Below, in pieces: positions 32,533-63,324 of a stretch of DNA of 64,000 nt. The stretch is from Curvibacter sp. PD_MW3 (lineage in GTDB: Bacteria; Pseudomonadota; Gammaproteobacteria; Burkholderiales; Burkholderiaceae_C). A program made the translations under genes and the position numbers. Numbering within the stretch: the stretch's first letter is position 1; the number at the start of each line of letters is the position of its first letter. The stretch lies in NCBI GenBank assembly GCA_002633085.1, contig NSIV01000002.1, positions 105,602 through 169,601 on the forward strand, read 5' to 3'. The notes below the pieces were generated by a model. It was not told the origin of the DNA and searched no databases. It saw only the letters and a program-made list of their open reading frames with translations.

Positions 32533-32770
32533 TCATGCTCTTGCCACTGGGATCTGTTTCAGATCGGTCGTGTAGTCCGGCGACTTGCTGTCCTGCTTCA
32601 TGCCCCAAGCCCGAGGCGCCGCGCCCACCTTGCCGCTGGCGAGCTTCAAGGCGCCCTTGCCCCATCGGTCATTGACCGCGTCGAGCGCCTGCATCAGCCG
32701 CGCCCTGTCGTGCTCCGACTCGGGCTACCCAAGATCGAGCTCAAACTGCTCGCGGGTAACCGAATCGAAA
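32533..32770 (-). pseudogene. umuC: Remnant of the umuC 3' end (C-terminal ~78 codons) with an in-frame TAG
   Basis: The minus-strand translation reads ...REQFELDLG*PESEHDRARLMQALDAVNDRWGKGALKLASGKVGAAPRAWGMKQDSKSPDYTTDLKQIPVARA*. It aligns with the C-terminus of the intact UmuC at 58639 (..[66 protein letters not shown]). The stop is at 32725-32727. Confidence 0.8.
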
Positions 32771-49807: not shown

Positions 49808-50119
49808 AACTGGCGGAAGTGAGATGAAAAAAAATCTCAAGACATCATCGTGATGAATTTGAACGCCTTGAAATCTCATTTTCAAGCACGGAAATGGTTT
49901 CAAGCTGACCCTTGCCCTTCGCCCAATTCAGAGCTTCCTCGAACGCCTAGTCGGAAGGTTCAGAAAGCCCTCGCAGCCAAACGCAACGATGACGCGGACG
50001 ATGAGCAGTCATGGAAAGAAAATGGGAAGAAACAAAATTAAGCTGCCGCTGCTTTGGCAGCGATAGAAGCATAGGATCTACGCAAAGGCCATAATGCCCC
50101 GAGGGAGGCGATCTCATTC

Positions 50120-51262
50120 ATGGAGACAAGTCAAATTGGAGAGGTGTTTCAAGTTGCGACCAACAAGGCGCTGACTGAGACCGGCGGAGGACATAGCCAG
50201 AAGGGCGTGGATTTTCAACGCGCCTGGGCCTTGTCCCGCATGTTTGAGACAGTGGACGAAGGCGCCACCGACTTCCTGTTTCTTTTTGAGGCGATCCAAG
50301 ACGTTGCCGTCCTTGATTCACCGACCGATCCGAAGTCGATTCGGATCTATCAGGTCAAAAAGAAGGACCGCAAAGAGTGGGAATGGAGCGAGTTGACCGA
50401 GCTTCATAACCCCGCCAAGCCGAAGGCTAGGCCCAAAGATCCATCCAAGATCGGAACCAGCACCATTGGCAAGCTCTATTCGAGCGTGATCGCGTTCAAA
50501 AATCTGAAAAGCTCGGGCAGCTTTGTGTCCAATGCCGGAACCAATCTCCCCCTCTCGAATGGAGCCAACGCAGCGACATCAGTCTCCTGCGACTTATCTC
50601 AACTAAGAAGCGACCACCTAACACTTCTCGAAGAGGGATTAAAGACCCTTCATGATTCCGGCCAAACCGTTCCTAATCCGGCTCTGATCAGCATCGAGAA
50701 GGTCAGCTTGCCGCCGGACGATCCGGCAACTCACCTTAATGGCCTCGCAGTCTCCTTCCTGAGCAAACGCAGTGCAAAGCATGCAGGCCAAGCCAAAGCT
50801 CTGGTGGATGCGCTTCTCGCCCAAATCGGCCCTCTAGGCTCCAAAACAGACAGCTGTTCCTCATTTAAGGAGCTTTGCCAGCAGCGTGGATATGCTCGAT
50901 CGGACTTCATCGCCGCTTTAGGTGCTCTCGAAACCGTTCCCGATATGCAAGCTCTCCTTGACGCCTGGCTCACAAGGCTCACGCAGGAAGGTGGCATCGA
51001 CTTTATGCTTGCCACCGCAACAAGGGTGGCTGGCGGTCGCATTTTTACGCGAAACTTGATAGGCGGCGAGGATCCAGCAGTCGCGGCGCTCATCTCAGAT
51101 TGCGATCGCTGGATCGACGCCAATCCCCCCGGCTCGGATCTTTCACCCTATTTTCAAAAGGCTCGCGCTCACCTGGAGCCACTCCATCGGTCGTTCAGGA
51201 GCCCTGAACTCATCGCTCACTTTATGTTGAGGGCCATCAAAAAATGCGTGGACCTGATCTAA
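50120..51262 (+). CDS. Cap4/DUF4297-like dsDNA nuclease-domain protein (LmuA-like effector)
   Basis: N-terminal GG.SQKGVDFQRAWALSRM...DFLFLFEAIQDVAVLD...IRIYQVKKK resembles a PD-(D/E)xK Cap4-type nuclease fold. GGGAGG RBS. Low-GC patch. Confidence 0.65.
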   Translation: METSQIGEVFQVATNKALTETGGGHSQKGVDFQRAWALSRMFETVDEGATDFLFLFEAIQDVAVLDSPTDPKSIRIYQVKKKDRKEWEWSELTELHNPAKPKARPKDPSKIGTSTIGKLYSSVIAFKNLKSSGSFVSNAGTNLPLSNGANAATSVSCDLSQLRSDHLTLLEEGLKTLHDSGQTVPNPALISIEKVSLPPDDPATHLNGLAVSFLSKRSAKHAGQAKALVDALLAQIGPLGSKTDSCSSFKELCQQRGYARSDFIAALGALETVPDMQALLDAWLTRLTQEGGIDFMLATATRVAGGRIFTRNLIGGEDPAVAALISDCDRWIDANPPGSDLSPYFQKARAHLEPLHRSFRSPELIAHFMLRAIKKCVDLI

Positions 51263-51295
51263 GAAAACTGGTTCGAAGCCTCAGGACTAAATCAC

Positions 51296-52981
51296 ATGAG
51301 AAGCTTTCTCTTCGAGGATATCTGGATTCTTTCGCGCAAAGACAAGCGAGCCAGGATTGTGGACTTCAACCCCGGGAAGAACCTGATTCTCGGCAGGAAC
51401 CACACCGGCAAATCAAGCCTGATTAAAAGCCTCTTCACCACACTTGGCGCCACCCCAAGCGGCAAGCTCCAAGGCTGGAACGAGGACACCATCACGAAGG
51501 TTGGCTTCTCAGTTGACGGAATTCGATATGCGGCTCTTCACCAGGCGGGAACACGCGCTCTATTTGACGCTGAGGGGCAAACGCTAACCGTTGCTCAGAA
51601 CCAGTCGGCGTGGAGCGAGGCTTTCGCAGCGGCGACAGGGTTCAATCTTCCTTTAATCGACAAGAATTCAAAAACGGTTCTTGCCGATCCGCGATGCTTC
51701 TTCATGCCGTTCTATATCAACCAAGACGGCAGCTGGATGGCTGAATGGGACACCTTCACCGGCATTCAGCAATACAAGGCGCCCATACTCTCGATTCTTG
51801 AATATTTCACAGGCATCAAGCCTCCCGAATACTATGCCGCGAAGGCCAAAAGGGATGCCGAGCAGGTCATCATCGAAGAGCTGCGACGCGAAAAAGCCTC
51901 ACTTGAAAAGGCCCGAGAGAGGGTGAGCAAATCCCTTTCGATGTCAGGCCCCAAAGTCGACCCAAAGAACTTCGAGACTGAAATCGCTCAGCTCACCACC
52001 GAGATCAACGAGCTGAATCAAAAGCAAGAGATTCTCAGGGATCAGGCGGTCAAAGAGCGCGAACTTCTCTCCTCAATCCGCCTTCAGAACAGGCTGGCCG
52101 AGGAGGCGTTGAAAGTCTACGAGAGCGACGCGGAGTTCATCCGTTCAGAGCCTCGCGACGCCATCGTCTGTCCTGTATGCAACGCTGAGCATGAGAATTC
52201 ATTTCTTGACCTGCTCACCTATGCAGAGGATGCCCGATCGCTCAGGGACATTACCGTTCGTTTGCGTAGAGACTCGATAGAGGTCGAAGCACGACTTGCC
52301 AAGACGCAAGGGCAAATCGACGAGCTCGCGGCACATTACCGGAAGGTGTCCGAACTTCTGGGAACGCGCCGAGGCGAGATGCAGTTCACACAAGTCGTTG
52401 ACAGCTTAGGGGCAGAGCGCGCGTTTTCCGCTTTTGAGCAAGAGCGCGCGGTTCTTGAAAAGGAACTGGGCGAACGCCTTCTCACACAAGAACGTTTGTC
52501 AGAGGGCATGGAAAAGCTGACCGATCGAGCCCGATCCAAAGACATTTTGAAGACTTTTCGAGAGGCCTTTTCTTCTGCGCTGATCGCCTTGAATCTTCCC
52601 GCGAACGATACCAGCAAGGCGCGCTTGAACAGCCGCCCCAACGTTTCAGGCAGCGGGGGCCCTCGCTCGGTGCTCGCCTACTACGCCGCACTTTGGGCTG
52701 CCTGCTACGGACAGATGGGGTCATTTCAAGTGCCTCTGGTGGTTGACTCCCCGAACCAGCAGGGGCAGGACGACATCAACCTGCCTAAGATCATCCAGTT
52801 TATTTGCGAGCGGCTTCCACAGCGGGCTCAGCTCATTCTCGGCTCCGAGATTGACACCGAGCACGACTTCGACCAAAAGCACGAGCTCTCTGATCAGTAT
52901 CGACTCTTGAATAGTGCGTCGTTCGACGATGTGGAGAAGGTCTTAGGTCCTATGGCCACCTTGATGTATCTGAAAGCCTGA
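51296..52981 (+). CDS. Rad50/SMC-like ABC ATPase with a coiled coil and CxxC hook (LmuB-like)
   Basis: Walker A GRNHTGKSS near the N-terminus, about 250 aa of heptad-rich coiled coil with a central CPVCNAEH, a signature-like SGSGGPRS, and Walker B/D-loop PLVVDSPNQQGQDD. Confidence 0.7.
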   Translation: MRSFLFEDIWILSRKDKRARIVDFNPGKNLILGRNHTGKSSLIKSLFTTLGATPSGKLQGWNEDTITKVGFSVDGIRYAALHQAGTRALFDAEGQTLTVAQNQSAWSEAFAAATGFNLPLIDKNSKTVLADPRCFFMPFYINQDGSWMAEWDTFTGIQQYKAPILSILEYFTGIKPPEYYAAKAKRDAEQVIIEELRREKASLEKARERVSKSLSMSGPKVDPKNFETEIAQLTTEINELNQKQEILRDQAVKERELLSSIRLQNRLAEEALKVYESDAEFIRSEPRDAIVCPVCNAEHENSFLDLLTYAEDARSLRDITVRLRRDSIEVEARLAKTQGQIDELAAHYRKVSELLGTRRGEMQFTQVVDSLGAERAFSAFEQERAVLEKELGERLLTQERLSEGMEKLTDRARSKDILKTFREAFSSALIALNLPANDTSKARLNSRPNVSGSGGPRSVLAYYAALWAACYGQMGSFQVPLVVDSPNQQGQDDINLPKIIQFICERLPQRAQLILGSEIDTEHDFDQKHELSDQYRLLNSASFDDVEKVLGPMATLMYLKA

Positions 52982-53041
52982 ACATCACGAGCTGATGAAG
53001 TCTTGACACAAGCCGACCGACGAGAGACTGATGCCCTCATA

Positions 53042-53304
53042 TTGGCACGGGCAAAGTCTTGTCCGTCAACCTTCAAACCCCACCATCCACCCTTGGCGTC
53101 TTGATTCTTCAAGAAGCGGGCGCGAAGGACTTGAGCGGCAATCCACTGATTCTTGTAAATCTTATCGGCATCCATGGGCCACACTCCGCCGGGCTATACA
53201 AAGAAACGATCTTCGCTCAGGAAGTTGGCTCGAGCCAAGAGTTCTCATCCGCCCCGAGCGAACTTCGCCGAGCACCAGCCTGCGGTATCTTGGCTCGAGC
53301 CAAG
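53042..53304. repeat. Array A of the 16-bp palindrome CTTGGCTCGAGCCAAG (2 near-perfect copies plus 1 degenerate)
   Basis: GTTGGCTCGAGCCAAG at 53224-53239, CTTGGCTCGAGCCAAG at 53289-53304, and a degenerate ATTGGCACGGGCAAAG at 53042-53057 that shares the flank tcttgtccg with copy B2. Confidence 0.85.
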
Positions 53305-53422
53305 TGCGGCCAACACAGATGCCGCGATGGAAACCCGACAGGATCAACCGGTGCACTCTAAGCGCGAGCGCGACGCGAGGCTTGATTTGACAACGCTCCC
53401 GAAGCGCGAGATGAAATAGGGC

Positions 53423-53836
53423 TTGGAAACCACAATCCCCACGCCCCAGAGCCATTTGTCAATGGCTGAGTATTGGATTCAGCTTCGCGCACTCGTGGCA
53501 GCGCGGCCATCCCTCGTGCGCGAGATGTTTCCCGACCTCGAAGCCGATCGCCTGACCGAGCTTCAGGAGCGCGACCAAGAGCTGGGGGAGATCGCCAAAA
53601 GCAGAGGGCTTACGATGTTTGCCCCTGCTCGGCGAGCTGTATTGCAGCAGCGGGATCCCTGCGTCGAGTCGGGAATGATCTACTCGTTTTTCGACTCCGA
53701 AGACGGTGAACTCATCGCTGAGATCACGGGCTATTCCAGAGCTTTTATTTGGCTCTACAAAGAGGCGCAGGCCATAGTTTTGCAGCGGCACGTCCTAGTC
53801 CATCACGAGGCTAGGGACGCTGATTTCCGACTTTGA
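53423..53836 (+). CDS. Hypothetical protein
   Basis: 137-aa ORF downstream of palindrome array A. No recognised motif; the start is uncertain (alternative MAEYWIQ). Confidence 0.4.
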   Translation: METTIPTPQSHLSMAEYWIQLRALVAARPSLVREMFPDLEADRLTELQERDQELGEIAKSRGLTMFAPARRAVLQQRDPCVESGMIYSFFDSEDGELIAEITGYSRAFIWLYKEAQAIVLQRHVLVHHEARDADFRL

Positions 53837-54416
53837 ACTCCTGACGAATCTCATCACGATCTTTCCACTGCCGAATCAAGTCTGCGACGTGCTCCCCACA
53901 AAGCCGCTTGACATGATCGTAACCCGGGACGCCGAATAGATGCATCAGACGTCTCTCGGCTGCTGCTGGTCCGAAGAATTCAAAGTAGCGGCCTAGCGCG
54001 TTTTCGATTAAACCCTTGACTCTGTCTGTCAATTGGGGTTCGCCGAGGCTGATGCTAGTGTTCCATTCGTAGAGACTTTCCTCGAAATCGAGCAGGATAC
54101 GGATCCTCCACAGAGAATCAGAAGGCTCCGTGTGAGCGAATTCCACAGCGCCTCGCCAGAGATCTTCAAAGCATTCCGTAGCTCCTATTTGCGCACACAC
54201 AGTCAGTAGAGACAACGGCGTTCCATCGTTCTCCACGCCCCAAGTCGCAACTCGGGAGATATGCCCGTCGGGAAGTTTGCCCCGGGTTTGGGCTAGTTTC
54301 TTCAGCTCGTCCAAAAACGCCAAATGATCAGCAATCGCCAGATCAAATTCGCGGCGCGATATCACTATCACATCCGGGAGCGAACGGAGACGTGCAGCTT
54401 CTTCTAGATTTTCCAT
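53811..54416 (-). CDS. Hypothetical protein
   Basis: About 201 aa from the internal ATG (MENLEEAARL); the ORF extends to 54473. Its upstream region contains palindrome array B. No recognised motif. Confidence 0.45.
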   Translation of the reverse strand: MENLEEAARLRSLPDVIVISRREFDLAIADHLAFLDELKKLAQTRGKLPDGHISRVATWGVENDGTPLSLLTVCAQIGATECFEDLWRGAVEFAHTEPSDSLWRIRILLDFEESLYEWNTSISLGEPQLTDRVKGLIENALGRYFEFFGPAAAERRLMHLFGVPGYDHVKRLCGEHVADLIRQWKDRDEIRQEFKVGNQRP

Positions 54417-54475
54417 ATCATTAGATTGTCGGCCATTTGTCGTGGGTTGCACTCGCGGCTTGAGGTTGAGCAAGT

Positions 54476-54558
54476 CTTGGCTCGAGCCAAGAGTTGCTAT
54501 TCAGCACGGGCACGCGTCGGCTGAACAGTCGCCCCGCGGAAACTTGGCTCGAGCCAAG
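54476..54558. repeat. Array B of the 16-bp palindrome CTTGGCTCGAGCCAAG (2 perfect copies)
   Basis: Copies at 54476-54491 and 54543-54558, 67 bp start to start, in the divergent intergenic region. Confidence 0.9.
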
Positions 54559-54623
54559 TCTTGTCCGCCGGCCTTTACGGCTCCAGTAATTAAACTGGCT
54601 GGGGGCCGAAGCAGGAAGCTGCG

Positions 54624-55025
54624 ATGCGGTCGGCTACGGTGAAGGATTTCGAGGCCGTCATCAGGGACGCCGAAGTGGAGGACCTCCGGATTTTTCTCGG
54701 CCGGTTCATGGAGATGTGCGTCCAGCCCGGCGCCAATTCAGCCCACTTTGGAAACGCGACCAACGTCTTCATAGACGCGTGCAAAAACATCTACAACGAC
54801 CCGTCGGTGCCGCGCCTGGTGAAGCTTATCGAGTCGCTGTTCAAGAACGCGAAGCTTGAAAGTCGTCTGTCTCCTCCTGTGCCGGCGCAACCGCAGCGGT
54901 GTCGCATGATGGGCTGTGGGATGCGCATGGAGCGGCCTCAACCTTTGTCGGCGGCGCGGCCTTCGCAACCATCGCGCTCATGGGCCAGTTCGCGCGTCAG
55001 GCCCGGCCCTTCAAGGACTGACTAG
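54624..55025 (+). CDS. Hypothetical protein (the C-terminal third may be a non-native read-through at a module junction)
   Basis: The first roughly 85 aa look protein-like. The last roughly 45 aa are Pro/Arg/Ser-rich and coincide with a jump to higher GC. Confidence 0.3.
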   Translation: MRSATVKDFEAVIRDAEVEDLRIFLGRFMEMCVQPGANSAHFGNATNVFIDACKNIYNDPSVPRLVKLIESLFKNAKLESRLSPPVPAQPQRCRMMGCGMRMERPQPLSAARPSQPSRSWASSRVRPGPSRTD

Positions 55026-55035
55026 TTAGACGCTT

Positions 55036-55311
55036 TCATTTGAGATACGACTTCAGCACGGACACCACCTCTTCCAGGTCGCTTTCCCGCTGAACTGGAT
55101 CGGTGGCCTCTGCGCCCAAATGATCGCGCAAATGATGTTCCAGAACCTCTGACATCAGCCCGTTGACCGCGCCACGGATGGCGGCGATCTGCTGCAAGAT
55201 CGCCGCGCAATCAACCTCCGCTTCCAACGCTTTTTCGAGCGCATCGGACTGCCCGCGAATGCGCCGCACTCGCGTGAGCAATTTGGCTTTGCCTTTGATC
55301 GTGTGCGCCAT
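55036..55311 (-). CDS. rcnR: RcnR/FrmR/CsoR-family metal-sensing repressor
   Basis: MAHTIKGKAKLLTRVRRIRGQ...EVDCAAILQQIAAIRGAVNGLM..HHL, 91 aa, divergent from rcnA. Confidence 0.85.
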   Translation of the reverse strand: MAHTIKGKAKLLTRVRRIRGQSDALEKALEAEVDCAAILQQIAAIRGAVNGLMSEVLEHHLRDHLGAEATDPVQRESDLEEVVSVLKSYLK

Positions 55312-55340
55312 GTGTCTTCTCCTGAAATTTTATGTAAGTA

Positions 55341-55355
55341 TACTGGGGTATAGTA
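55341..55355. promoter_or_regulatory. RcnR-type operator (TACT-G4-N3-AGTA)
   Basis: TACTGGGGTATAGTA in the rcnR-rcnA intergenic region. It matches the G-tract-centred inverted repeat known for E. coli RcnR. Confidence 0.6.
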
Positions 55356-55392
55356 TCAAAGCTCATCGCCACGCTCCACTTTAAGGCCGCCC

Positions 55393-56553
55393 ATGCCACC
55401 GATCGCAGAACTCATCCAGCAAGGCTCTACCAATCTGTGGGTCTTCATTCCCACCGCAATTTTGCTTGGGGCATTGCACGGCCTGGAGCCTGGGCACTCC
55501 AAGACGATGATGGCTTCGTTCATCATTGCGGTTAAGGGGTCTGTTGCCCAAGCCGCCTTGCTTGGCCTATGCGCAGCGTTTTCTCATTCGCTAATCGTGT
55601 GGGCGCTTGCCGCTGCCGCGTTGCAGTTCGGAAACGAGCTGATCGCCGAACAGGCCGAGCCCTATTTCATGCTTCTGTCCGCCGTGGTGGTGATTGGCGT
55701 GTCCATTTGGATGTTCGTGCGCACGCGTCGCGATGAAATGGCTGCAAAGGCCCGCCAACATGCGCCCCACGGAGGCAAGATCATCAACACAGGGCATGGC
55801 ATTGTGGAGCTGGAGGTGTTCGAGTCGGGAGTTCCTCCTCGTTTTCGTCTCCATGCCTATGACAACTGCATGGCCGGCAAGGGCTTCGATGACCACGATA
55901 CGGTGTCGATAGAGACCCTGCGCCCTGACGGCTCCATGCAAATGTTCGAACTCAAACCTTCTGGAATGTTCTTGGAGTCTGTCCAGGAGATTCCCGAACC
56001 CCATGAATTCGAGGCGGTTGTGCTCATGGGGCATGGCGACCACATCCATCGTTTCGAGGTCAGTTTTTCCGAGGAAGACCATGATCACGCCCATGGAGAC
56101 CACCATCATCACGGGCACCACCACCACGATGTAGCAGATGACTTGCTAGGGGGCGATGGGACGTATCAGGATGCCCATGAGCGGGCACACGCCGAAGACA
56201 TCAAGCGCCGCTTTGTTGGGCAGAAAGTTACTACGGGACAGATTGCCATGTTCGGGTTGACCGGCGGCTTGGTGCCATGCCCTGCATCGGTAACGATTCT
56301 GATGATCTGCCTGCACCTGAAGCGATTCACCCTGGGCGCGGCCATGGTGGCGAGCTTCAGCCTGGGGTTGGCGATCTCGCTTGTCAGCGTCGGGGTGATC
56401 GCCGCCTGGGGCGCGCGCCAGGTTGGCAAACGCTTTGGCAATGGCAGGTTTAGCGATCTGGCGCGCAAGATGCCCTACTTTTCCAGTGGCTTGATGGCTT
56501 TCGTTGCCGTCCTCATGGCCGTCCAGGCCTTCATACAGCTTGCGGCGGCCTAA
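55393..56553 (+). CDS. rcnA: Nickel/cobalt efflux protein RcnA (NicO family) with a His-rich loop
   Basis: LGALHGLEPGHSKTMM signature, a central loop with HDHAHGDHHHHGHHHH, and C-terminal GLVPCP. Confidence 0.9.
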   Translation: MPPIAELIQQGSTNLWVFIPTAILLGALHGLEPGHSKTMMASFIIAVKGSVAQAALLGLCAAFSHSLIVWALAAAALQFGNELIAEQAEPYFMLLSAVVVIGVSIWMFVRTRRDEMAAKARQHAPHGGKIINTGHGIVELEVFESGVPPRFRLHAYDNCMAGKGFDDHDTVSIETLRPDGSMQMFELKPSGMFLESVQEIPEPHEFEAVVLMGHGDHIHRFEVSFSEEDHDHAHGDHHHHGHHHHDVADDLLGGDGTYQDAHERAHAEDIKRRFVGQKVTTGQIAMFGLTGGLVPCPASVTILMICLHLKRFTLGAAMVASFSLGLAISLVSVGVIAAWGARQVGKRFGNGRFSDLARKMPYFSSGLMAFVAVLMAVQAFIQLAAA

Positions 56554-56574
56554 GTCTTTAGGATAAGATTAATG

Positions 56575-56691
56575 AGTCACTGGGGAGTAGCCGGCCTTCG
56601 ATAAACCGAAGGCGCTTGCGTCAACACACTTGATCCACACGATCATGGCGCAAGCGGTTTCCGACTTGGCAAGACCTTTGACCATGCAGCT
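56575..56691 (+). ncRNA. yybP-ykoY (manganese) riboswitch
   Basis: The conserved cores GGGGAGUAGC (56582-56591), GUCAACAC and UUGGCAAGACCUUUG (56666-56680) flank two internal hairpins (gccttcg/cgaaggc and gcttgcg/cgcaagc). It lies 5' of a GDT1/UPF0016 gene, a known regulated family. Confidence 0.75.
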
Positions 56692-56751
56692 TCCGGTTTG
56701 GCCGGGGAGGCGCGTGGTCAATTGTTTTTTGCCCGGCCTGGGAACTTAAAA

Positions 56752-57327
56752 ATGGAAGCTCTTTTGACTTCAATGGGTGTGGTCGCGCTGGCAGAGATCG
56801 GCGACAAGACCCAACTTCTCGCGTTCGTTCTGGCGGCGAGATTCAAGAAACCTCTCCCCATCATCGCGGCAATTCTTTGCGCGACGCTCGTCAATCATGG
56901 TCTAGCGGGAGCATTGGGCGCCTGGATCACTTCGATGCTTACCCCCGAGGTTCTTCGCTGGGTGGTGGGAATCTCGTTTCTCGGCATGGCAGTGTGGACC
57001 CTCATCCCGGACAAGATCGAAGAAGAAGAGACTCAGGTTGCGAAGCATTTGGGTGTTTTCGGAGCCACACTGGTGACCTTCTTCTTGGCGGAAATGGGCG
57101 ACAAGACGCAGATCGCGACAGTCGCCATGGCCGCGCACTTTCCAAATCCGGTGATGGTGGTGATTGGCACCACGCTGGGCATGCTGATTGCCGATGTGCC
57201 GGCGGTCTTTGTGGGTGACCGCTTCTCCAAGAAGATCCCAATGAAGCTGGTGCACTCGATCGCTGCTGCGATGTTCGCTGTGATGGGTGTTCTGGCTTTG
57301 CTGCAGGTTGACACCTGGATAAAGTAG
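56752..57327 (+). CDS. GDT1/TMEM165 (UPF0016) family cation (Mn2+/Ca2+) transporter
   Basis: Two E-x-G-D-K-[TS] repeats (AEIGDKTQLLAF and AEMGDKTQIATV). ATG at 56752. Confidence 0.85.
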   Translation: MEALLTSMGVVALAEIGDKTQLLAFVLAARFKKPLPIIAAILCATLVNHGLAGALGAWITSMLTPEVLRWVVGISFLGMAVWTLIPDKIEEEETQVAKHLGVFGATLVTFFLAEMGDKTQIATVAMAAHFPNPVMVVIGTTLGMLIADVPAVFVGDRFSKKIPMKLVHSIAAAMFAVMGVLALLQVDTWIK

Positions 57328-57338
57328 GAACGCAAACC

Positions 57339-57400
57339 TCACGCTCTCGCCATAGGCATGTCGCTCCATTAGGTCGCGTAGGCCGGCGTTCGTCGGCCGC
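57339..57400 (-). pseudogene. umuC: Short remnant of the umuC 3' end
   Basis: 57342-57396 matches 58642-58696 (the end of intact umuC) at 50 of 55 positions. The minus-strand translation ..RRTPAYAT*WSDMPMARA* compares with ..[18 protein letters not shown]. Confidence 0.8.
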
Positions 57401-57609
57401 GCCCTTGCGCCCCAAGCATCCCATTTAGACTACTGGGGGTGTCGCAGTAAGGAACACTTTGCATTTTGCTCTATACCCCTCTCCCCTTTTCAGCACGGCA
57501 TGTGATAGTCTGGACGAGTCCCAATACAGAGCACGCGAGGGCTTTGATGGCTTGCAAGACATCGTCTATCCTGCTAACTTAAACCCAACCTTTTTGAAAT
57601 GCTGCGCAA

Positions 57610-57987
57610 GTGCTAACCCGAGTGAAAAAGCCTAGCTCAAACGCTACTCCGAAAAAAAGAGCTGGCGTCTCAGTAGTAGGCGCCGGAAAGATAGGCATTG
57701 GCACACAGCAATCGCCCAAACGGACGCCACCAAGTGCCCGAGGCCCCATGCCAACGCAAGAGCCCAAGACTCGCGTAATTGTCAAGCCCGCACGTCAGCT
57801 TTCCACTGAGCCTGAGAAGAATATGAGCCGTCTGAAGCCCAACACCAAGACTGAGCAGGGACAAGCCAAGAAGACCGGCAAAGCGTCAGACGATTTCATG
57901 GCTGTGCTTTCGGAAATGGAACAAGAGATCCAAGAACGTCGGCAAGTGTTGATGTCAAAGCTTGAGGCTTCAAAAAAGAAGACATGA
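57610..57987 (+). CDS. Putative antitoxin partner of the PIN toxin (basic, low-complexity; start uncertain)
   Basis: The ORF ends in ATGA, overlapping the PIN gene start. The likely shorter product runs from the ATG at 57823 (MSRLKPN...). No recognisable DNA-binding fold. Confidence 0.4.
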   Translation: MLTRVKKPSSNATPKKRAGVSVVGAGKIGIGTQQSPKRTPPSARGPMPTQEPKTRVIVKPARQLSTEPEKNMSRLKPNTKTEQGQAKKTGKASDDFMAVLSEMEQEIQERRQVLMSKLEASKKKT

Positions 57988-58457
57988 GCAAATATCTTCT
58001 TGACACCAATACAGTGATTCACTATCTGCAAGAGCGTCGACCAGTTGTCGAACGGCTTAATGCCGCCCCTAAAGGCAGCATTCACACCAGCTCAATCGTA
58101 GTCATGGAGTTCTCAACAGGATTCGCCAAGCGTGGGAAACTAAACGGGAAAAACAAGAAAAAACTCGACGATATTTTCAAAAAATTTCCGCCGATCGATT
58201 TTGATGAATTAGACGCATACGAAACCGCGAGAACCATTGGCCGAATGGATCTTGAAAACCGTGAAGACTTGCATCGAGACATGATGATAGCCAGCCAAGC
58301 AAAGAGGCGTGGATACATCGCAGTCACAAACAACACGACGGACTTCTACAAGGCAGTCGGAACAATGGTCGAGGACTGGACAATCGACCTCTCTGCAAAG
58401 TCACCGCTTACAAAGCATAAGCCAACCATATCAGGCAAGAAGTCAAATAGAAGGTGA
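57984..58457 (+). CDS. PIN-domain ribonuclease toxin (VapC-like)
   Basis: YLLDTNTVIHYL (Asp1), VVMEF (Glu) and AVTNNTTDF (C-terminal Asp) match the PIN acidic quartet pattern. Low-GC cassette. Confidence 0.75.
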   Translation: MSKYLLDTNTVIHYLQERRPVVERLNAAPKGSIHTSSIVVMEFSTGFAKRGKLNGKNKKKLDDIFKKFPPIDFDELDAYETARTIGRMDLENREDLHRDMMIASQAKRRGYIAVTNNTTDFYKAVGTMVEDWTIDLSAKSPLTKHKPTISGKKSNRR

Positions 58458-58638
58458 TAGGCCTGTAACTCTCCTTCCCATTGCGATCCCCAGAAAGACT
58501 CACCTTGGGCCTTTGTAGTCCAATCCAAATGCAGTTCATCTAGCTGGACTCACGCATATCAAGGAACGGGCGACTATGCCAGAACTCCATCCCTTTGATG
58601 CACGTTCATATTGAGCGGCGGGAGGCCACACATGGCGA

Positions 58639-59970
58639 CTACGCTCTCGCCACTGGCATGTCGCTCCATTCGGTTGTGTAGGCCGGCGTTCGTCGGTCTT
58701 GGCGCATCGACCAGTCCCGCGGGGCCTCTCCCACTTTCGCGCTGCCGACCTTGACGGTGCCCTTGCCCCATCGGCCGTTGACGGCGTCGAGAGCTATCAT
58801 GAGTCGCCCTCGAACGATCTCATTTGCAGTGTCGTCGCCGCCCAAGTCGAGCTCCAACTGCTCGAGGCTTGAAGGCTGGATGTCCATCAACATCACACCC
58901 GCCTTCGCCAGGCGAAAGCCCGGCTTGTAGATGGCCCGAAGGCCAAGCAAAGCCGCGCCGACGATGGCGGAGGTGTCGGAGCTGGGCCCGCGCATAGGAA
59001 CGACCATGGAACGCGAATATTGCGGATCCTTGCGGAATGGACTGGTGCGGATGAAGACCAGAACCTCGGACGCCACGCTGCCCTGGGCTCGCAACTTTTC
59101 GGCCGCTCGCGAGGCGAACTCTGAGACGGCCTCCGACAATGGCGCGAGGGCTTCGACAGGGCGTCCGAACGAGCGCGTGCATGCGATCTGCTTCTTGGGC
59201 TCGGGATTGTCTTCAAGACCCACGCAAGGCACGCCTTGCAACTCCCTCACTGTCCGCTCGAGAACCACGGACCATCGACGCTTGGCCACGGCCGGGTCCA
59301 TGCGGGCGAGGTCCCAAGCGGTGCGCACGCCCGCCTCCGTCAACGCCGCGCCGATCTTGCGACCGACGCCCCACACCTCGCCGACTTCGGTGGCGGAGAG
59401 CAAAGCCTCGAACTCCTCGGAGCTGGCCCTGGACAGGTCGCACACCTGAGAGTGAACCTCCGGGTAGCTGCCGGGCTTGCGCTCGGCCGTCTTGGCGATG
59501 TGATTGGCAAGCTTGGCCAGCGTCTTTGTCCGCGCGATGCCCACACCGCACGGGATGCCCACCCAGCGATGGATTCGAGAGCGGATCGCGAGGGCCCGCA
59601 CCTTCAAGTCGCCCCGCACCCCGTCGAGCCCGATGAAGCTTTCGTCGATGCTGTAAATCTCTTGGGTGGGACCCAGTCCCGCCGCCAGGCTCATCATGCG
59701 ATCGGACATATCGCCGTAGAGCGCGAAATTGGCCGACAGAGCCACCAGGCCCACCTCGTCTTCGAGATGCCGGATCTGATGCCAGGGATGGCCCATCTTG
59801 ACGCCAAGAGCCTTGGCTTCGTTGGACCTCGCGATCGCGCACCCGTCGTTATTTGAAAGCACCACCACGGGAACGCCCTCGAGCGAGGGGCGGAAGACCC
59901 GCTCGCAGGAGACATAGAAGTTGTTGCCATCGACAAGCGCGAACACGAATGCACCTCGATCATTCAACAC
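58639..59970 (-). CDS. umuC: Translesion DNA polymerase V catalytic subunit UmuC (Y-family)
   Basis: [25 protein letters not shown] and SIDESF Y-family motifs, 443 aa. It overlaps the umuD stop. Confidence 0.9.
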
Positions 59971-60413
59971 GGCATCGACTTGATCGCGTGCAGCACCACG
60001 CCCCAGACTTCAATCGTCTGCCCCTCCTTCGGCACGATGTCGGGAAATCCGGGGTTGGCGGCTTTGAGCTTCATGCGGCCTGCCCGCATCGCCAGCGTCT
60101 TGCAAACGAACTCGCCGTCCACCACCGCGATCACCACATGACTGCTTCGGGGACGAATCGCCCGATCCACGACCAGGACGTCGCCATCGAAGATGCCGGC
60201 ATCCCTCATGGAGTCGCCTCGCGCGCGCAGGAGAAACGTCGCCTGCGGATGCTTCACGAGCTGAGCGGTCAAGTCGACTCGCTTCGCGCCGAGGTCCTCC
60301 GCTGGGGATGGAAAGCCCGCTCGCACCGTCGCCATGAGGTCGAGCACATGCAGCGGCAGGCTCGCCGCGAGCATGGGCTTATCGCATGTGACGGAGGCTA
60401 AAATACTGGACAT
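59964..60413 (-). CDS. umuD: UmuD (LexA-like S24 self-cleaving peptidase)
   Basis: GFPSPAED, a Ser (GDSM) and a Lys nucleophile pair, 149 aa. The ATG lies inside the IS target-site duplication. Confidence 0.9.
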
Positions 60414-60417
60414 AATC
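60404..60417 (-). promoter_or_regulatory. Distal half of the split LexA (SOS) box: CCAGTA arm plus spacer copy
   Basis: The minus strand reads GATTATGT-CCAGTA. Together with 61503-61516 it reconstructs TACTGT-GATTATGT-CCAGTA, against the consensus TACTGT-N8-ACAGTA. Confidence 0.7.
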
Positions 60418-61502
60418 GGCTCTGTTCGCGCTACGTGTTGATGATCTGTTTGCCCAGGGCGGTCACGATAAAGTCCTCCGCCTTGGCGTCATCCTTGAAC
60501 CATTCCTTCATCCGCATCCACGCCAGGTAGTTCGGCAGGTGCTTGGTCGAGACGCCCCTGAGGTCGCCATTGAGCCAAGTTTTCAGGCGCTCGTGGTAGT
60601 TGTTGACCGACTGCACGTGGGCGGCGCCGTAGGGCGTCATCTTGACCGGGCCTTCGTAGGCGACCGCGACCGACACCGTCTTGATGCCGAGGTCCTTCTC
60701 GACGGTCCTGAACGCCCCCGAGCCATCGACGAAGAGCGTGGCCCCCTTGCCCGCGATCTGCGCGGCCACGGGCATGGCGAGTTTCTGAGTCATGTCAGGC
60801 AGCACGCGGTCGGCCACGTAGGGAGCGCCGCGCGTCTTCATGACCAGCACCGCGACCTTCTTGACGACGGCTTTCTTTCCTGAGGCCTTCTTGCCCATCG
60901 CGGCCCCGCCACGCTTGCGGGCGGGGCGGCCGAGGGAGCGGCTGCCCTTGCCGCTCTCGCGGAAATAGGTCTCGTCGGCCTCGATCACGCCGGGGCGGGC
61001 TCGGGCTTGGTGATGGACGGCGTCCTCGAGGAAGCGGTGCCGCCAACGGAAGGAGGTGCTCGGGGAGATGCCCATCTTCTTGGCGGCGGCCCTGACCGTC
61101 AGCCCTTGGATCATGCAGTCGGCGAACTCGGCCAAGCGGCCCTTGTTGCGCAGGCCGGAGATGGGCGTGTCGGTCGCATGCGAGAAGGTCTTGCGGCAGA
61201 CCCGGCAGGCGTAGCGTTGCAGGCCTCGGGCGTGTCCATTCTTGACCGAGTCGGAGAAGCCGCAACGGGGGCAGATCGGCTCGGCCCGGAGGCTGTGGAT
61301 CGCGTCGTGGGAGCGGATGGAGTAGCGCAGCTCGCGGCACCTGAGCTCGACCTTTTGGAGCTGGCCGGGGTCCAAGGATTGGAGCCGTTCGAATAGCTGG
61401 TTAAAATCCCATGGCTGGTCGGATTTACAGTCTTCCATCGCAGGCTCTTTCGTGCTAACGAATAAATGAATACTCGAATCAACACGCTATGATAACAGAG
61501 CC
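60418..61502 (-). mobile_element. IS1595-family insertion sequence (1,085 bp) with 8-bp target-site duplication ACATAATC
   Basis: Terminal inverted repeats GGCTCTGTTcgcgctaCGTGTTGAT (left) and GGCTCTGTTatcatagCGTGTTGAT (right, reverse complement). Identical 8-mers sit at 60410-60417 and 61503-61510. It contains a single transposase ORF. Confidence 0.85.
60431..61438 (-). CDS. IS1595-family (ISXO2-like DDE) transposase with an N-terminal zinc ribbon
   Basis: CPRCG...YACRVCRKTF zinc ribbon, an HTH (LTVRAAAKKMGISPSTSFRWRHRF), then a DDE domain (IEADETYF...VDGSGAF...N.HERLK). Confidence 0.85.
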   Translation of the reverse strand: MEDCKSDQPWDFNQLFERLQSLDPGQLQKVELRCRELRYSIRSHDAIHSLRAEPICPRCGFSDSVKNGHARGLQRYACRVCRKTFSHATDTPISGLRNKGRLAEFADCMIQGLTVRAAAKKMGISPSTSFRWRHRFLEDAVHHQARARPGVIEADETYFRESGKGSRSLGRPARKRGGAAMGKKASGKKAVVKKVAVLVMKTRGAPYVADRVLPDMTQKLAMPVAAQIAGKGATLFVDGSGAFRTVEKDLGIKTVSVAVAYEGPVKMTPYGAAHVQSVNNYHERLKTWLNGDLRGVSTKHLPNYLAWMRMKEWFKDDAKAEDFIVTALGKQIINT

Positions 61503-61516
61503 ACATAATCACAGTA
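61503..61516 (-). promoter_or_regulatory. Proximal half of the split LexA (SOS) box: TACTGT arm plus spacer copy
   Basis: The minus strand reads TACTGT-GATTATGT directly abutting the IS right end. Confidence 0.7.
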
Positions 61517-61600
61517 TATCGATTCAGCGGGCCAGACGACCGCTTTTCATCTTTTCAACGGTTTGGCCGAACGGCTCGATCCACTCGTTACGATCCATCC

Positions 61601-62266
61601 ATGTGCGCGCATTACGAAGGCGTCAAAGACCCTAAAACCTACGCTGAGCGTTATTCGTCAGCTCCACCGTCCGAGGCTGGCAAGGTCGATCTGTGGCCAG
61701 GCTATTTGGGCTCGTTCATCCGCAGGCATCCTCACGCCGATGTGGGAGACGAGGCCGTGCCTGAGCGAGAAGCTCTCCTTGGGTCCTTCGGATTGATCCC
61801 CCACTGGGCGACCGACGCCAAACTAGCTCGCAACACCTACAACGCCCGCAGCGAGACTGCCGCTTCGAAGCCGAGCTTTCGCGATGCGTGGAAGAAGGCT
61901 CGGCACTGCATCATCCCGGCCCAAGCGATTTACGAGCCTGACTGGCGCAGCGGCAAAGCTGTTTCCACCCGCATTGAACGCAGCGATGGAGCGCCCATGG
62001 GCATCGCTGGCCTTTGGGACTCGTGGAAGCAGCCCGATGGAACCTGGCTGAACAGCTACACGATGCTCACGATCAACGCCGACCATCACGAGCTGATGAA
62101 GTCCTTTCACAAGCCGACTGACGAGAAGCGAATGGTGGTGATCCTTCCCGAGGCAGCCTACGGCGATTGGCTGGCGGCGTCCGCCTCGGACAGCATGGAC
62201 TTCATGCAGCCCTATCCCGCCGATCGGCTCACGGTCCACGCGACGGCAGCCCAAGGACTGTTTTGA
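61601..62266 (+). CDS. SOS response-associated peptidase (SRAP/YedK-like abasic-site processing protein)
   Basis: It starts MCAHY (catalytic Cys2) and has the family motifs NARSET, PA..YEP and MLT.NA. Confidence 0.85.
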   Translation: MCAHYEGVKDPKTYAERYSSAPPSEAGKVDLWPGYLGSFIRRHPHADVGDEAVPEREALLGSFGLIPHWATDAKLARNTYNARSETAASKPSFRDAWKKARHCIIPAQAIYEPDWRSGKAVSTRIERSDGAPMGIAGLWDSWKQPDGTWLNSYTMLTINADHHELMKSFHKPTDEKRMVVILPEAAYGDWLAASASDSMDFMQPYPADRLTVHATAAQGLF

Positions 62267-62710: not shown

Positions 62711-62998
62711 ATAAGAGTCGAAATTAAAAGCATTGCGATAGCGATGTTTATGTAGAACGCGTCTCGCTCAGAAGCGGCCGTTTGTCTCAGCGCCTCCGCT
62801 TCATCTGCCTGAGTAATGTTAGATCCTTTCGTCAGTTTACCCATAGCGCGCTCCCGCTGGCGTTGTTGGTAACCTTTTCATCCATCCCATTGCCAAAGTC
62901 AATCCAAAAAGGCTTTTCTGTTGGCGGACATGAAAGTGCCCAGAGTAAGAGCAGCTTCGGATTCATCCTTCGCTCCACGTCATATCGACCAAGCTTAT

Positions 62999-63258
62999 CT
63001 TGGCTCGAGCCAAGAATTGCGATCCGCCTTGTTCTCGCGTCTGCCAATTCCCCGCCCGTCGGAATCTTGGCACGAGCCAAGATTGTTGACCTCGTCCGAT
63101 CGACAAAGGCAAACTCTCCCCAAGCTTGGCTCGAGCCAAGAACGGTGCTTTGTCCGGCGGGCATGCCAACCTGTCGGAATCTTGGCTCGAGCCAAGATCA
63201 TTGAACCCGTCCCATAGACAAGGATAGGCGCTGCCACCCAACCTTGGCTCGAGCCAAG
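62999..63258. repeat. Array C of the 16-bp palindrome CTTGGCTCGAGCCAAG (5 copies)
   Basis: Copies start at 62999, 63066 (one mismatch, CTTGGCACGAGCCAAG), 63125, 63181 and 63243. Spacers are 40-51 bp and non-identical. The array ends 66 bp before the ATG at 63325. Confidence 0.9.
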
Positions 63259-63324
63259 ATCGGCGGCACGCAGCAATTCCTTCGGCTTGAGCAATACTGA
63301 TGGCAATAACCAGAGAGGAAAAAA

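Follow-up and report, generated by a model that had tools for sequence, protein, structure and literature searches.

The umuDC/SRAP locus and its insertion sequence

In the window, by which we mean the whole stretch of 64,000 nucleotides that was analysed, a umuDC operon and a divergently transcribed SRAP gene are separated by an insertion sequence (IS) (Table 1). UmuD scored 146.2 bits against the NCBIfam model of the polymerase V autoproteolytic subunit (NF007621, cut-off 110). UmuC reached 407.6 bits against the NCBIfam UmuC subfamily model NF002955, slightly short of the cut-off of 431; the operon position beside umuD supports its assignment. The SRAP protein matched PF02586 with 134 bits and begins MCAHYE, the Cys at position 2 being that expected of the catalytic residue.

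Table 1. Positions of the genes and sites at the locus, numbered along the window
Feature	Position	Strand	Description and basis
umuC	58639..59970	-	Y-family polymerase V catalytic subunit, 443 aa; Pfam IMS, IMS_C, DUF4113
umuD	59964..60413	-	S24 self-cleaving subunit, 149 aa; Pfam Peptidase_S24
Sigma-70-like match	60388..60416	+	GTGACG-17-CATAAT, -10 in spacer; possible SRAP promoter, now into IS; consensus match only
Proximal LexA half-site	60404..60409	.	TACTGG on +, CCAGTA on -
Target-site duplication, copy 1	60410..60417	.	ACATAATC, equals box spacer; repeat search
IS1595-family insertion sequence	60418..61502	-	1,085 bp; sequence, Pfam/NCBIfam matches
Terminal inverted repeats of IS	60418-60442 and 61478-61502		
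tnp	60431..61438	-	Transposase gene, 335 aa: zinc ribbon, HTH, DDE_Tnp_IS1595
Weak LexA-like motif	61415..61430	-	CTGT-AAATCCGA-CCAG, tnp codons 3-8; significance uncertain
Target-site duplication, copy 2	61503..61510	.	ACATAATC, with orphan minus-strand ATG; repeat search
Distal LexA half-site	61511..61516	.	ACAGTA on +, TACTGT on -
Putative umuD -10 hexamer	61513..61518	-	TATACT, now 1.1 kb from umuD, facing into IS; promoter role inferred
SRAP gene	61601..62266	+	YedK/HMCES-type, divergent from umuDC; Pfam SRAP

The sole ORF of the element is tnp, which runs in the same direction as umuDC, and no passenger gene was found in the IS. A genome-wide search for further copies gave a copy number of one. 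The transposase matched Pfam DDE_Tnp_IS1595 (PF12762, E = 8e-14) and NCBIfam transpos_IS1595 (NF033547, 138.5 bits, cut-off 75), and its N-terminus carries an IS1/IS1595 zinc-binding domain (residues 56-86; NF050000, 45.3 bits, cut-off 28). The terminal inverted repeats are 25 bp long and imperfect (GGCTCTGTT..CGTGTTGAT, 19 of 25 positions identical), and a repeat search revealed an 8-bp direct repeat bordering the IS on both sides. The catalytic domain, zinc ribbon, 8-bp duplication and terminal inverted repeats that define the IS1595 family are all present, as are all invariant columns of the alignment of the clade described below. The ATG of umuD (60413-60411) falls within the left duplication, 17 nt past the TAG stop of tnp (60433-60431).

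The insertion splits a probable LexA operator

When the flanks are joined without the IS, the minus strand reads TACTGT-GATTATGT-CCAGTA (in full, TACTGTGATTATGTCCAGTA); before the insertion, one LexA box was common to umuDC and the divergent SRAP gene. We scanned the genome for boxes of the form CTG-N10-CAG with an A/T-rich centre, scored out of 34. Only nine sites in 3.37 Mb scored 28 or more, and the reconstructed box scored 30, equal to both boxes before lexA, which are likewise of the CTGT-N8-CCAG type. Given about nine such boxes in this genome, the chance that a random insertion would hit the exact register is ~3e-6. In the same scoring the LexA-like motif inside tnp reached 26/34. It is retained in four of the five closest relatives and missing from most of the clade; an internal LexA box was rejected as a general feature of the clade, being weak and confined to these four close relatives.

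The genome holds three umuDC operons, and the two others keep intact boxes, which read TACTGTAAAT-ATG-TACAGTA and TACTGTACAT-ATG-ATCAGTA. Among genomes of the same genus, four have IS-free umuD/SRAP boxes: TACTGTACAT-ATG-TCCAGTA in two, and TACTGTATCT-ATG-TACAGTA and TACTGTGTTT-ATG-TACAGTA in one each. In both paralogues and all four of these loci the umuD ATG occupies box positions 11-13. The divergent umuD/SRAP layout is conserved among same-genus genomes, and the proximal half-site is identical in the IS-free homologues L014 and L015. The species-representative genomes compared share at most 73% DNA identity. An IS-free allele of the same species was not found; a look-up of the exact UmuD sequence returned one other contig, with the same IS arrangement. 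The idea that the flanking CTGT/ACAG belongs to the element was rejected, since IS-free loci hold an intact box and the 8-mers are direct rather than inverted repeats.

By its score and conserved position, the reconstructed site is very probably a real LexA operator and, as read from the sequence, the operator at this locus is destroyed by the insertion. An earlier note on this DNA had assigned the element to the IS1595 family, which the Pfam and NCBIfam transposase matches bear out. It had also described an 8-bp duplication identical to the box spacer, an umuD ATG inside the left duplication and a gap of 17 bp between tnp and umuD, all of which hold at the positions given above. The ancestral SOS box that it placed over the umuD ATG scores as highly as the lexA boxes, and the comparison with IS-free related loci that it suggested confirmed this box.

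A single clade of IS1595 elements prefers LexA boxes

We next considered transposases at least 45% identical to this one (the clade) and, as an outgroup, more distant IS1595 elements, drawn from a genome-contig scan with the transposase that yielded only relatives no more than 44% identical. The box-targeting elements form a single clade (support 96/90). A CTG lies exactly 8 bp from the IS tip in 31 of 38 distinct clade flanks and in 1 of 78 outgroup flanks (Fisher p = 2.5e-20); measured against an expectation of 1/64, the clade register gives a binomial p = 1e-49. The clade target profile, (T/A)ACTG(T/G)AT, agrees with host LexA half-sites at 8 positions, and the preferred full site is (T/A)ACTG(T/G)-N8-(A/C)CAGT(A/T), with the spacer as the duplication. 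The exact register was seen again in at least 12 independent events.

Reconstructed targets illustrate the pattern. They read ACCTGG-ATAAATCG-GCAGCT for a relative with 93% identity, TACTGT-GTTTTTTC-ACAGTA at 86%, ACCTGT-CAGAAACT-ACAGGT at 72% and ATCTGG-ATATCTTA-ACAGTT at 63%. Relatives with about 50% identity used TACTGG-ATGCAATC-ACAGCA, TGCTGT-ATGCCCGT-ACAGTA and AACTGT-ATGAAAAT/GAGAAAAT-ACAGTC. SOS genes found beside other clade targets are S24 peptidase, SRAP and RelB/YafQ genes. In another organism the orthologous umuD/SRAP box harbours the 86% element, which is reversed relative to the one studied here and has a different duplication. Inheritance of a single old insertion by the window and locus L094 was rejected on account of the reversed orientation, differences at 6 of 8 spacer positions, and the identity of the two duplication copies within each lineage.

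The clade is not confined to complete boxes. Approximately 18% of its half-sites do not contain CTG and one full site, GCGTCC-ACGAAAAA-CGGGCT, is without any box, so that the clade prefers the box but does not strictly require it. Two insertions used a single half-site (AACTGT-GTATTTAG-CTATGT and AACTGG-ATGTACTC-CCACCT), and one lies within another transposase gene, with both fourth positions of the site altered. Outgroup IS1595 elements of the same bacterial family and order had box flanks at 0 of 17 and then at 0 of 4 sites, and outgroup duplications are 81% A+T. The CTGT inside the terminal repeat was rejected as the cause of targeting, since the outgroup shares the GGCGCTGT ends and ignores boxes.

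Many relatives lie on short metagenome contigs, some of which are chimeric across IS copies and carry mismatched duplications. A metagenome scan by IS-end pattern gave 120 loci, comprising 110 chance matches without a transposase and 10 that were usable. A search of a plasmid collection with the transposase returned one match (41% identity), viral contigs yielded nothing relevant, and an order-level genome search found outgroup elements only. The earlier note had treated the insertion site as a striking coincidence; the flank counts instead mark it as a preferred target of the clade. On the evidence of these flanks, elements of this clade home to SOS operators, and the position of the insertion is not due to chance.

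Promoters and expected regulation of umuDC

The putative -10 hexamer TATACT overlaps the distal half-site, and in the unsplit box the ATG lies 7 nt downstream. TATACT was found directly upstream of the box in all seven related boxes examined, and a strict TATACT-box pattern occurred in 13 of 201 family genomes and not at all in the control. The umuD ATG is not preceded by a Shine-Dalgarno sequence, and umuD is likely leaderless. We observed no promoter-like hexamers at the umuD-facing end of the IS, and no terminator-like site was predicted between tnp and umuDC.

Because the probable promoter has been moved 1.1 kb upstream together with the distal half-site, umuDC expression may fall rather than rise. 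This copy of umuDC is probably uncoupled from LexA, with expression that is low and constitutive. The effect at the locus is probably mild, since the two other umuDC operons stay under LexA control.

Discussion

It seems very probable that the locus records an insertion, typical of its clade, into the umuDC/SRAP LexA operator, which would uncouple this umuDC copy from LexA. According to this explanation, the host being a Comamonadaceae (Rhodoferax/Hylemonella-like) betaproteobacterium, an IS1595-family element transposed into the single operator common to the divergent umuDC and SRAP genes, making an 8-bp staggered cut at both borders of the operator spacer. Such an insertion would be normal behaviour for the clade, whose target would be the beta/gamma-proteobacterial SOS box. 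The distal half-site would end up upstream of the IS together with the probable umuD promoter, which would read into tnp. Transcription of umuDC would then proceed by read-through only, and translation of umuD would have to begin, with no Shine-Dalgarno sequence, at an ATG 17 nt past the tnp stop.

How the site is chosen could be explained in several ways. Recognition by the transposase itself is most likely, to judge from the target sites, and is favoured because single half-sites and non-operator sites are used too. In a second possibility, which we consider very unlikely, LexA guides the homing, either because the transposase docks on bound LexA or because LexA masks boxes until it is cleaved, so that target choice would depend on the repressor and not on DNA sequence alone. 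The target profile does fit the LexA half-site beyond the CTG core (positions 1, 2, 6, 7 and 8), many targets are genuine operators beside SOS genes, and the weak motif at the start of tnp is kept in the closest relatives. However, some targets, such as that within a transposase gene, are unlikely operators, some sites have one half-site only, and a LexA dimer would cover the bases adjoining the cuts; the internal motif, with its score of 26/34, is missing in most of the clade. A related proposal, improbable but slightly less so, is that transposition is coupled to the SOS response, the element jumping mainly after LexA cleavage or docking on operator-bound LexA. LexA would then mask the boxes targeted by the element as long as the cell is undamaged, and in the closest relatives it might also occupy the weak box at the start of tnp. 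If this were true, SOS control would be lost at one more gene with each jump, in many cases at a mutagenesis operon of the umuDC type, and the SOS regulon would be rewired step by step by a stress-triggered 'operator hunter'. Finally, the position could be fortuitous if IS1595 elements favour A/T-rich 8-mers, the spacer is A/T-rich, and insertions in non-essential intergenic operators survive. IS1595-family elements are indeed described as generally duplicating A/T-rich 8-mers (PMC12561309), as the outgroup does here. Nevertheless, chance is extremely improbable given the recurrence of the same register in independent events and the difference in flank counts from an outgroup of the same bacterial family, and selection cannot fix cut positions to the base pair.

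With regard to expression, the earlier note predicted loss of LexA repression and possible read-through or IS-driven expression, which is plausible but leaves the displaced promoter and the two other umuDC operons out of account. In a strong form of this reading, umuDC would be constitutively and highly active through transcripts that start at the freed promoter or in the IS and read through into the operon, with a mutator-like and possibly selected phenotype. The operator is physically split and LexA requires both of its halves. Moreover, tnp and umuDC run in the same direction, only 17 nt apart and with no predicted terminator-like site between them, and the native promoter, which has lost its full operator, faces into the IS. 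Against this, the umuD ATG is no longer promoter-proximal and has no Shine-Dalgarno sequence, and the umuD-facing end of the IS offers no promoter-like hexamers. Moreover, the two other SOS-controlled umuDC operons make a mutator benefit unnecessary, and the reversed 86% element in the orthologous locus indicates that co-orientation is not conserved. Taking both sides together, we regard strong expression as possible but rather unlikely, and prefer low constitutive expression of an uncoupled umuDC copy.

Insertion sequences that choose a defined target are rare but useful, and the few cases of the REP, dif and attTn7 type have been informative on how transposases choose DNA. Most beta- and gamma-proteobacterial genomes contain some 10-40 copies of the LexA operator, and plasmids, integrative elements and prophages commonly carry it too. 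If LexA-box homing is true, these copies would give the element safe places to insert and ways to spread horizontally, and every insertion would alter the regulation of a DNA-damage gene. Targets often encode error-prone polymerases, and the element would link mobile-DNA activity to the control of mutagenesis. One 335-aa protein and a 20-bp target would make a simple, testable system of target selection. For annotators, SOS boxes that appear absent before umuDC-type operons may be boxes split by an IS.

Comparison with known systems

The IS1595 family itself is known; a literature search found no published description of any IS that homes to LexA boxes, and we consider LexA-box targeting by this clade to be new. 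The clade resembles Tn10/IS10, whose symmetric target consensus, NGCTNAGCN, is read by a transposase dimer as a preference rather than an absolute rule. In Tn10 the consensus falls within the duplication and corresponds to no regulatory site of the host, whereas the consensus of the clade is found on either side of the duplication and is also that of an operator.

Within its own family, the element shares a length of ~1 kb and a single transposase with the IS1595 elements defined by Siguier, Gagnevin & Chandler (2009), as cited in PMC12561309. Also shared with the family are an N-terminal zinc ribbon, HTH and DDE_Tnp_IS1595 domains, inverted repeats starting with GGC, and 8-bp duplications. 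Members described so far, like our outgroup, use A/T-rich 8-mers and have no flanking consensus. Unlike these, the present clade shows a strong preference for CTG(T/G) and (A/C)CAG around the duplication, which produces the match to the LexA box.

Homing to a short, palindromic, intergenic, multicopy motif recalls IS1397 and ISKpn1, which target REP/BIME sequences (Tobes & Pareja, 2006; PMC1525189). Those elements belong to another IS family, however, and REP is a structural repeat; the LexA box, by contrast, serves as the operator of a repressor, so that each insertion by the clade would rewire a stress-regulated promoter. ISAjo2-related elements of the IS1202 family at dif/pdif likewise keep a constant distance from a site that is bound by a host DNA-binding protein (PMC10132070). 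The IS1202-family elements are found outside the XerC site, 5 bp away from it and always in one orientation (PMC10132070), whereas insertions of the clade described here fall symmetrically within the operator, occur in either orientation and destroy the site.

The insertion in the umuD operator

The insertion has imperfect 25-bp inverted repeats at its ends (GGCTCTGTT...CGTGTTGAT) and is flanked by an 8-bp direct repeat, which was also recovered by a repeat search. The product of tnp, the transposase gene, matches Pfam DDE_Tnp_IS1595 and three HTH models, scores 138.5 bits against NCBIfam transpos_IS1595 (cut-off 75) and also matches the IS1/IS1595 zinc-binding domain; all testable defining features of the IS1595 family are present. 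The element has a single copy in the genome (3.37 Mb, 17 contigs). The umuD ATG (60413-60411) lies inside the left duplication, 17 nt downstream of the tnp stop codon (TAG, 60433-60431). The earlier note described an IS1595-family element inserted exactly in the spacer of the umuDC LexA box (SOS box); its coordinates are all correct in the window sequence and this structural interpretation is supported.

Coordinates and sequences of the insertion, umuD operators and rebuilt target sites
Feature	Position	Strand	Sequence	Remark
Left half-site	60404-60409		TACTGG	window sequence
Duplication copy 1	60410-60417		ACATAATC	window sequence
IS insert	60418-61502			1,085 bp; window sequence
Duplication copy 2	61503-61510		ACATAATC	window sequence
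Right half-site	61511-61516		ACAGTA	window sequence
tnp	60431-61438	minus		sole ORF of insert
umuD	59964-60413	minus		
umuC	58639-59970	minus		
SRAP/YedK-type gene	61601-62266	plus		divergent
Paralogous umuD locus, contig C8	381815-383572			window counterpart 60404-60417 with 61511-61518
Paralogous umuD locus, contig C14	132683-134446			same window counterpart
Box, IS-free locus L014	1282-1301		TACTGTACAT-ATG-TCCAGTA	
Box, IS-free locus L015			TACTGTACAT-ATG-TCCAGTA	
Box, IS-free locus L016			TACTGTATCT-ATG-TACAGTA	
Box, IS-free locus L017			TACTGTGTTT-ATG-TACAGTA	
Target site L091			ACCTGG-ATAAATCG-GCAGCT	transposase 93% identical to window's; within another IS1595 transposase gene
Target site L094			TACTGT-GTTTTTTC-ACAGTA	86%; between umuD and SRAP
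Target site L096			ACCTGT-CAGAAACT-ACAGGT	72%; between two genes without Pfam matches
Target site L097			ATCTGG-ATATCTTA-ACAGTT	63%; near ankyrin-repeat and PcfJ genes

The LexA box of Comamonadaceae and Betaproteobacteria is CTGT-N8-ACAG. The source genome encodes one LexA; the genome's nearest named relatives are Rhodoferax and Hylemonella (Comamonadaceae, Betaproteobacteria). When the whole genome was scanned with CTG-N10-CAG and an A/T-rich centre (maximum score 34), only nine sites scored at least 28, including two directly upstream of lexA, both of the CTGT-N8-CCAG type. The empty site rebuilt by removing the IS and one duplication copy, TACTGT-GATTATGT-CCAGTA, scores 30, equal to the lexA boxes. 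Two further complete umuDC operons in the genome carry, in the umuD direction, the boxes TACTGTAAAT-ATG-TACAGTA and TACTGTACAT-ATG-ATCAGTA; the umuD ATG falls at positions 11-13 of the 20-bp box in both and in the rebuilt site. Searching relatives with the joined flanks as query identified IS-free loci with the same divergent umuD/SRAP layout in four genomes of the genus (L014 to L017); this comparison, proposed in the earlier note as a check, confirms the ancestral box; no IS-free strain of the same species was found among these relatives.

Target sites of related elements

Closer relatives of the transposase were found in the protein database than in reference genomes, and their contigs were used to rebuild empty sites. 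At L094, UmuD and SRAP are 82% and 76% identical to those of the window and the flanking DNA is 76-82% identical, which identifies the locus as orthologous. Since its IS lies in the opposite orientation and six of the eight spacer bases are different, L094 is an independent insertion into the same operator in the same register. Elements with transposases of about 50% identity occupy the sites TACTGG-ATGCAATC-ACAGCA, TGCTGT-ATGCCCGT-ACAGTA and AACTGT-ATGAAAAT/GAGAAAAT-ACAGTC; many more have one-sided flanks of TACTGT or TACTGG plus 8 bp, and several adjoin S24-peptidase, SRAP or RelB/YafQ genes.

Counting every distinct flank once, we compared half-sites of the clade (transposases at least 45% identical to the window's) with those of an outgroup of IS1595 elements (at most 43%). 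CTG lies exactly 8 bp from the IS tip in 31 of 38 clade half-sites, 29 of them CTGT or CTGG, and in the same register in 1 of 78 outgroup half-sites (Fisher p = 2.5e-20; binomial versus 1/64, p = 1e-49). Box flanks were seen at none of 17 outgroup elements with clean duplications from the same bacterial family, nor at four further outgroup sites from the order-level genome search. The ten-position clade profile, (T/A)-A-C-T-G-(T/G)-A-T-R-T, agrees with the genome's own LexA half-sites, including positions beyond the CTG core. In a maximum-likelihood tree the box-targeting elements form one clade (support 96/90), to which non-targeting elements are sister; 14 of its 15 members are box-flanked, and the remaining one is on a 1.36-kb contig with mismatching duplications. 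The exceptions are one full site without a box and a few with a single half-site. Overall, the chief finding is that the whole clade prefers the SOS box as its target, strongly but not absolutely. The clade is known here mainly from metagenome contigs and is rare among reference genomes: in about 800 genomes searched at family and order level, no member was found besides the window's element and one truncated copy.

Passenger genes for DUF1232 and possibly RelB/YafQ apparently follow tnp in some members of the clade (contigs L254:1157-1558, L255 and L258:1254-1813). In these three, no right IS end was detected in the 200 bp beyond the tnp stop, and L254 and L255 have a conserved sequence behind tnp. 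Outgroup elements from the same bacterial family (L231, L233, L236-L240, L246 and others) sit in T- or A-runs with GC-rich flanks, such as CGGGGC-TTTTTCTT-TGGCTC and CACCCC-AAAAAGAA-GCCCGC, which resemble intrinsic-terminator U-tracts and may point to another target preference.

Recognition of the operator

The duplication is exactly the box spacer, so both strand transfers fall at the half-site/spacer borders, symmetrically about the operator dyad. The half-sites are probably read by the transposase itself, given that the L091 insertion in another transposase gene has both fourth positions changed, that single half-sites serve as targets and that the bases adjoining the cuts would be hidden under a bound LexA dimer. 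LexA might instead take part, as docking partner or mask; we consider this unlikely. As a target the box probably offers advantages: an intergenic position beside non-essential, normally silent genes, conservation in many hosts and mobile elements, and overlap with promoters able to drive tnp after insertion.

Box-like sequences also occur within IS1595 elements. Codons 3-8 of tnp (61415-61430, minus strand) read CTGT-N8-(A/C)CAG, as at the same position in L093, L095 and L097; the motif is present in four of the five closest relatives and absent from the remainder of the clade. It retains a rare TGT Cys codon despite the GC-rich elements, and is only a weak LexA-like box (26/34). A distant element (31% identity; L064:1379-1470, also L055; gammaproteobacterial MAG contigs) has a perfect SOS box, AACTGTACAATAATACAGTT, within its left end, overlapping the promoter TTGACA-16-TACAAT 42 nt upstream of tnp; its transposase gene looks LexA-repressed.

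Consequences for umuDC

TA precedes all seven related boxes, creating a TATACT that ends 7 nt before the A of the umuD ATG, and no Shine-Dalgarno sequence follows it in any of them. TATACT with ATG at box positions 11-13 is common to all three umuD genes of the genome and the IS-free homologues of the genus. The strict pattern TATACTGT-N4-ATG-NMCAGTA was found in 13 of 201 family genomes (reversed-pattern control, 0). This suggests that umuD mRNA is leaderless, with promoter and start codon both under the LexA box, an arrangement for which we found no relevant description in the literature.

In the window, TATACT (61518-61513, minus strand) and the distal half-site now lie upstream of the IS, facing into it, and in the second duplication the orphan ATG starts an ORF that crosses the tnp start out of frame. 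The umuD ATG has neither promoter-like hexamers nor a ribosome-binding site upstream. No terminator-like site is predicted in 60300-61700 (the IS and the tnp-umuD gap), and read-through from tnp into umuD is therefore possible. For these reasons we expect this umuDC copy to be uncoupled from LexA, low constitutive expression being likelier than strong de-repression; the de-repression predicted in the earlier note is plausible but probably too simple. The SRAP gene lost half of its operator through the insertion, and a consensus-level promoter match with its −10 element (CATAAT) within the spacer is now directed into the IS. Because the boxes at the two other umuDC operons are intact, the insertion is likely to be nearly neutral.

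Several other features lie in the window. A 61-aa remnant of a umuC C-terminus (window ~32536-32718, C8:138137-138319), which comprises the DUF4113 region and shares 61% identity with the window's UmuC, may be left over from a fourth umuDC operon. At 62993-63263, downstream of SRAP, five copies of the perfect 18-bp palindrome CTTGGCTCGAGCCAAG sit in 27-nt repeats spaced 56-67 bp apart. Some of the intervening sequences are repeated too, and the cluster therefore looks REP/BIME-like, not like a CRISPR array. G+C falls to 47-59% in 50000-58500 (genome 63%), where a Cap4-type nuclease gene is followed by an AAA-domain gene (50120-52981) and where a gene for a PIN-domain toxin lies at 57984-58457; the umuDC/SRAP module thus borders a probable defence/accessory island.

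Comparison with known systems

Full-text literature searches turned up no insertion sequence described as homing to LexA boxes. Described IS1595-type elements have A/T-rich 8-bp duplications with no flanking consensus (PMC12561309), and the outgroup elements analysed here resemble them in both respects. In function the clade resembles other target-specific insertion sequences, such as those directed at REP elements (PMC1525189) or, in the IS1202 family, at dif sites (PMC10132070), but differs from them in that its target is a repressor operator.
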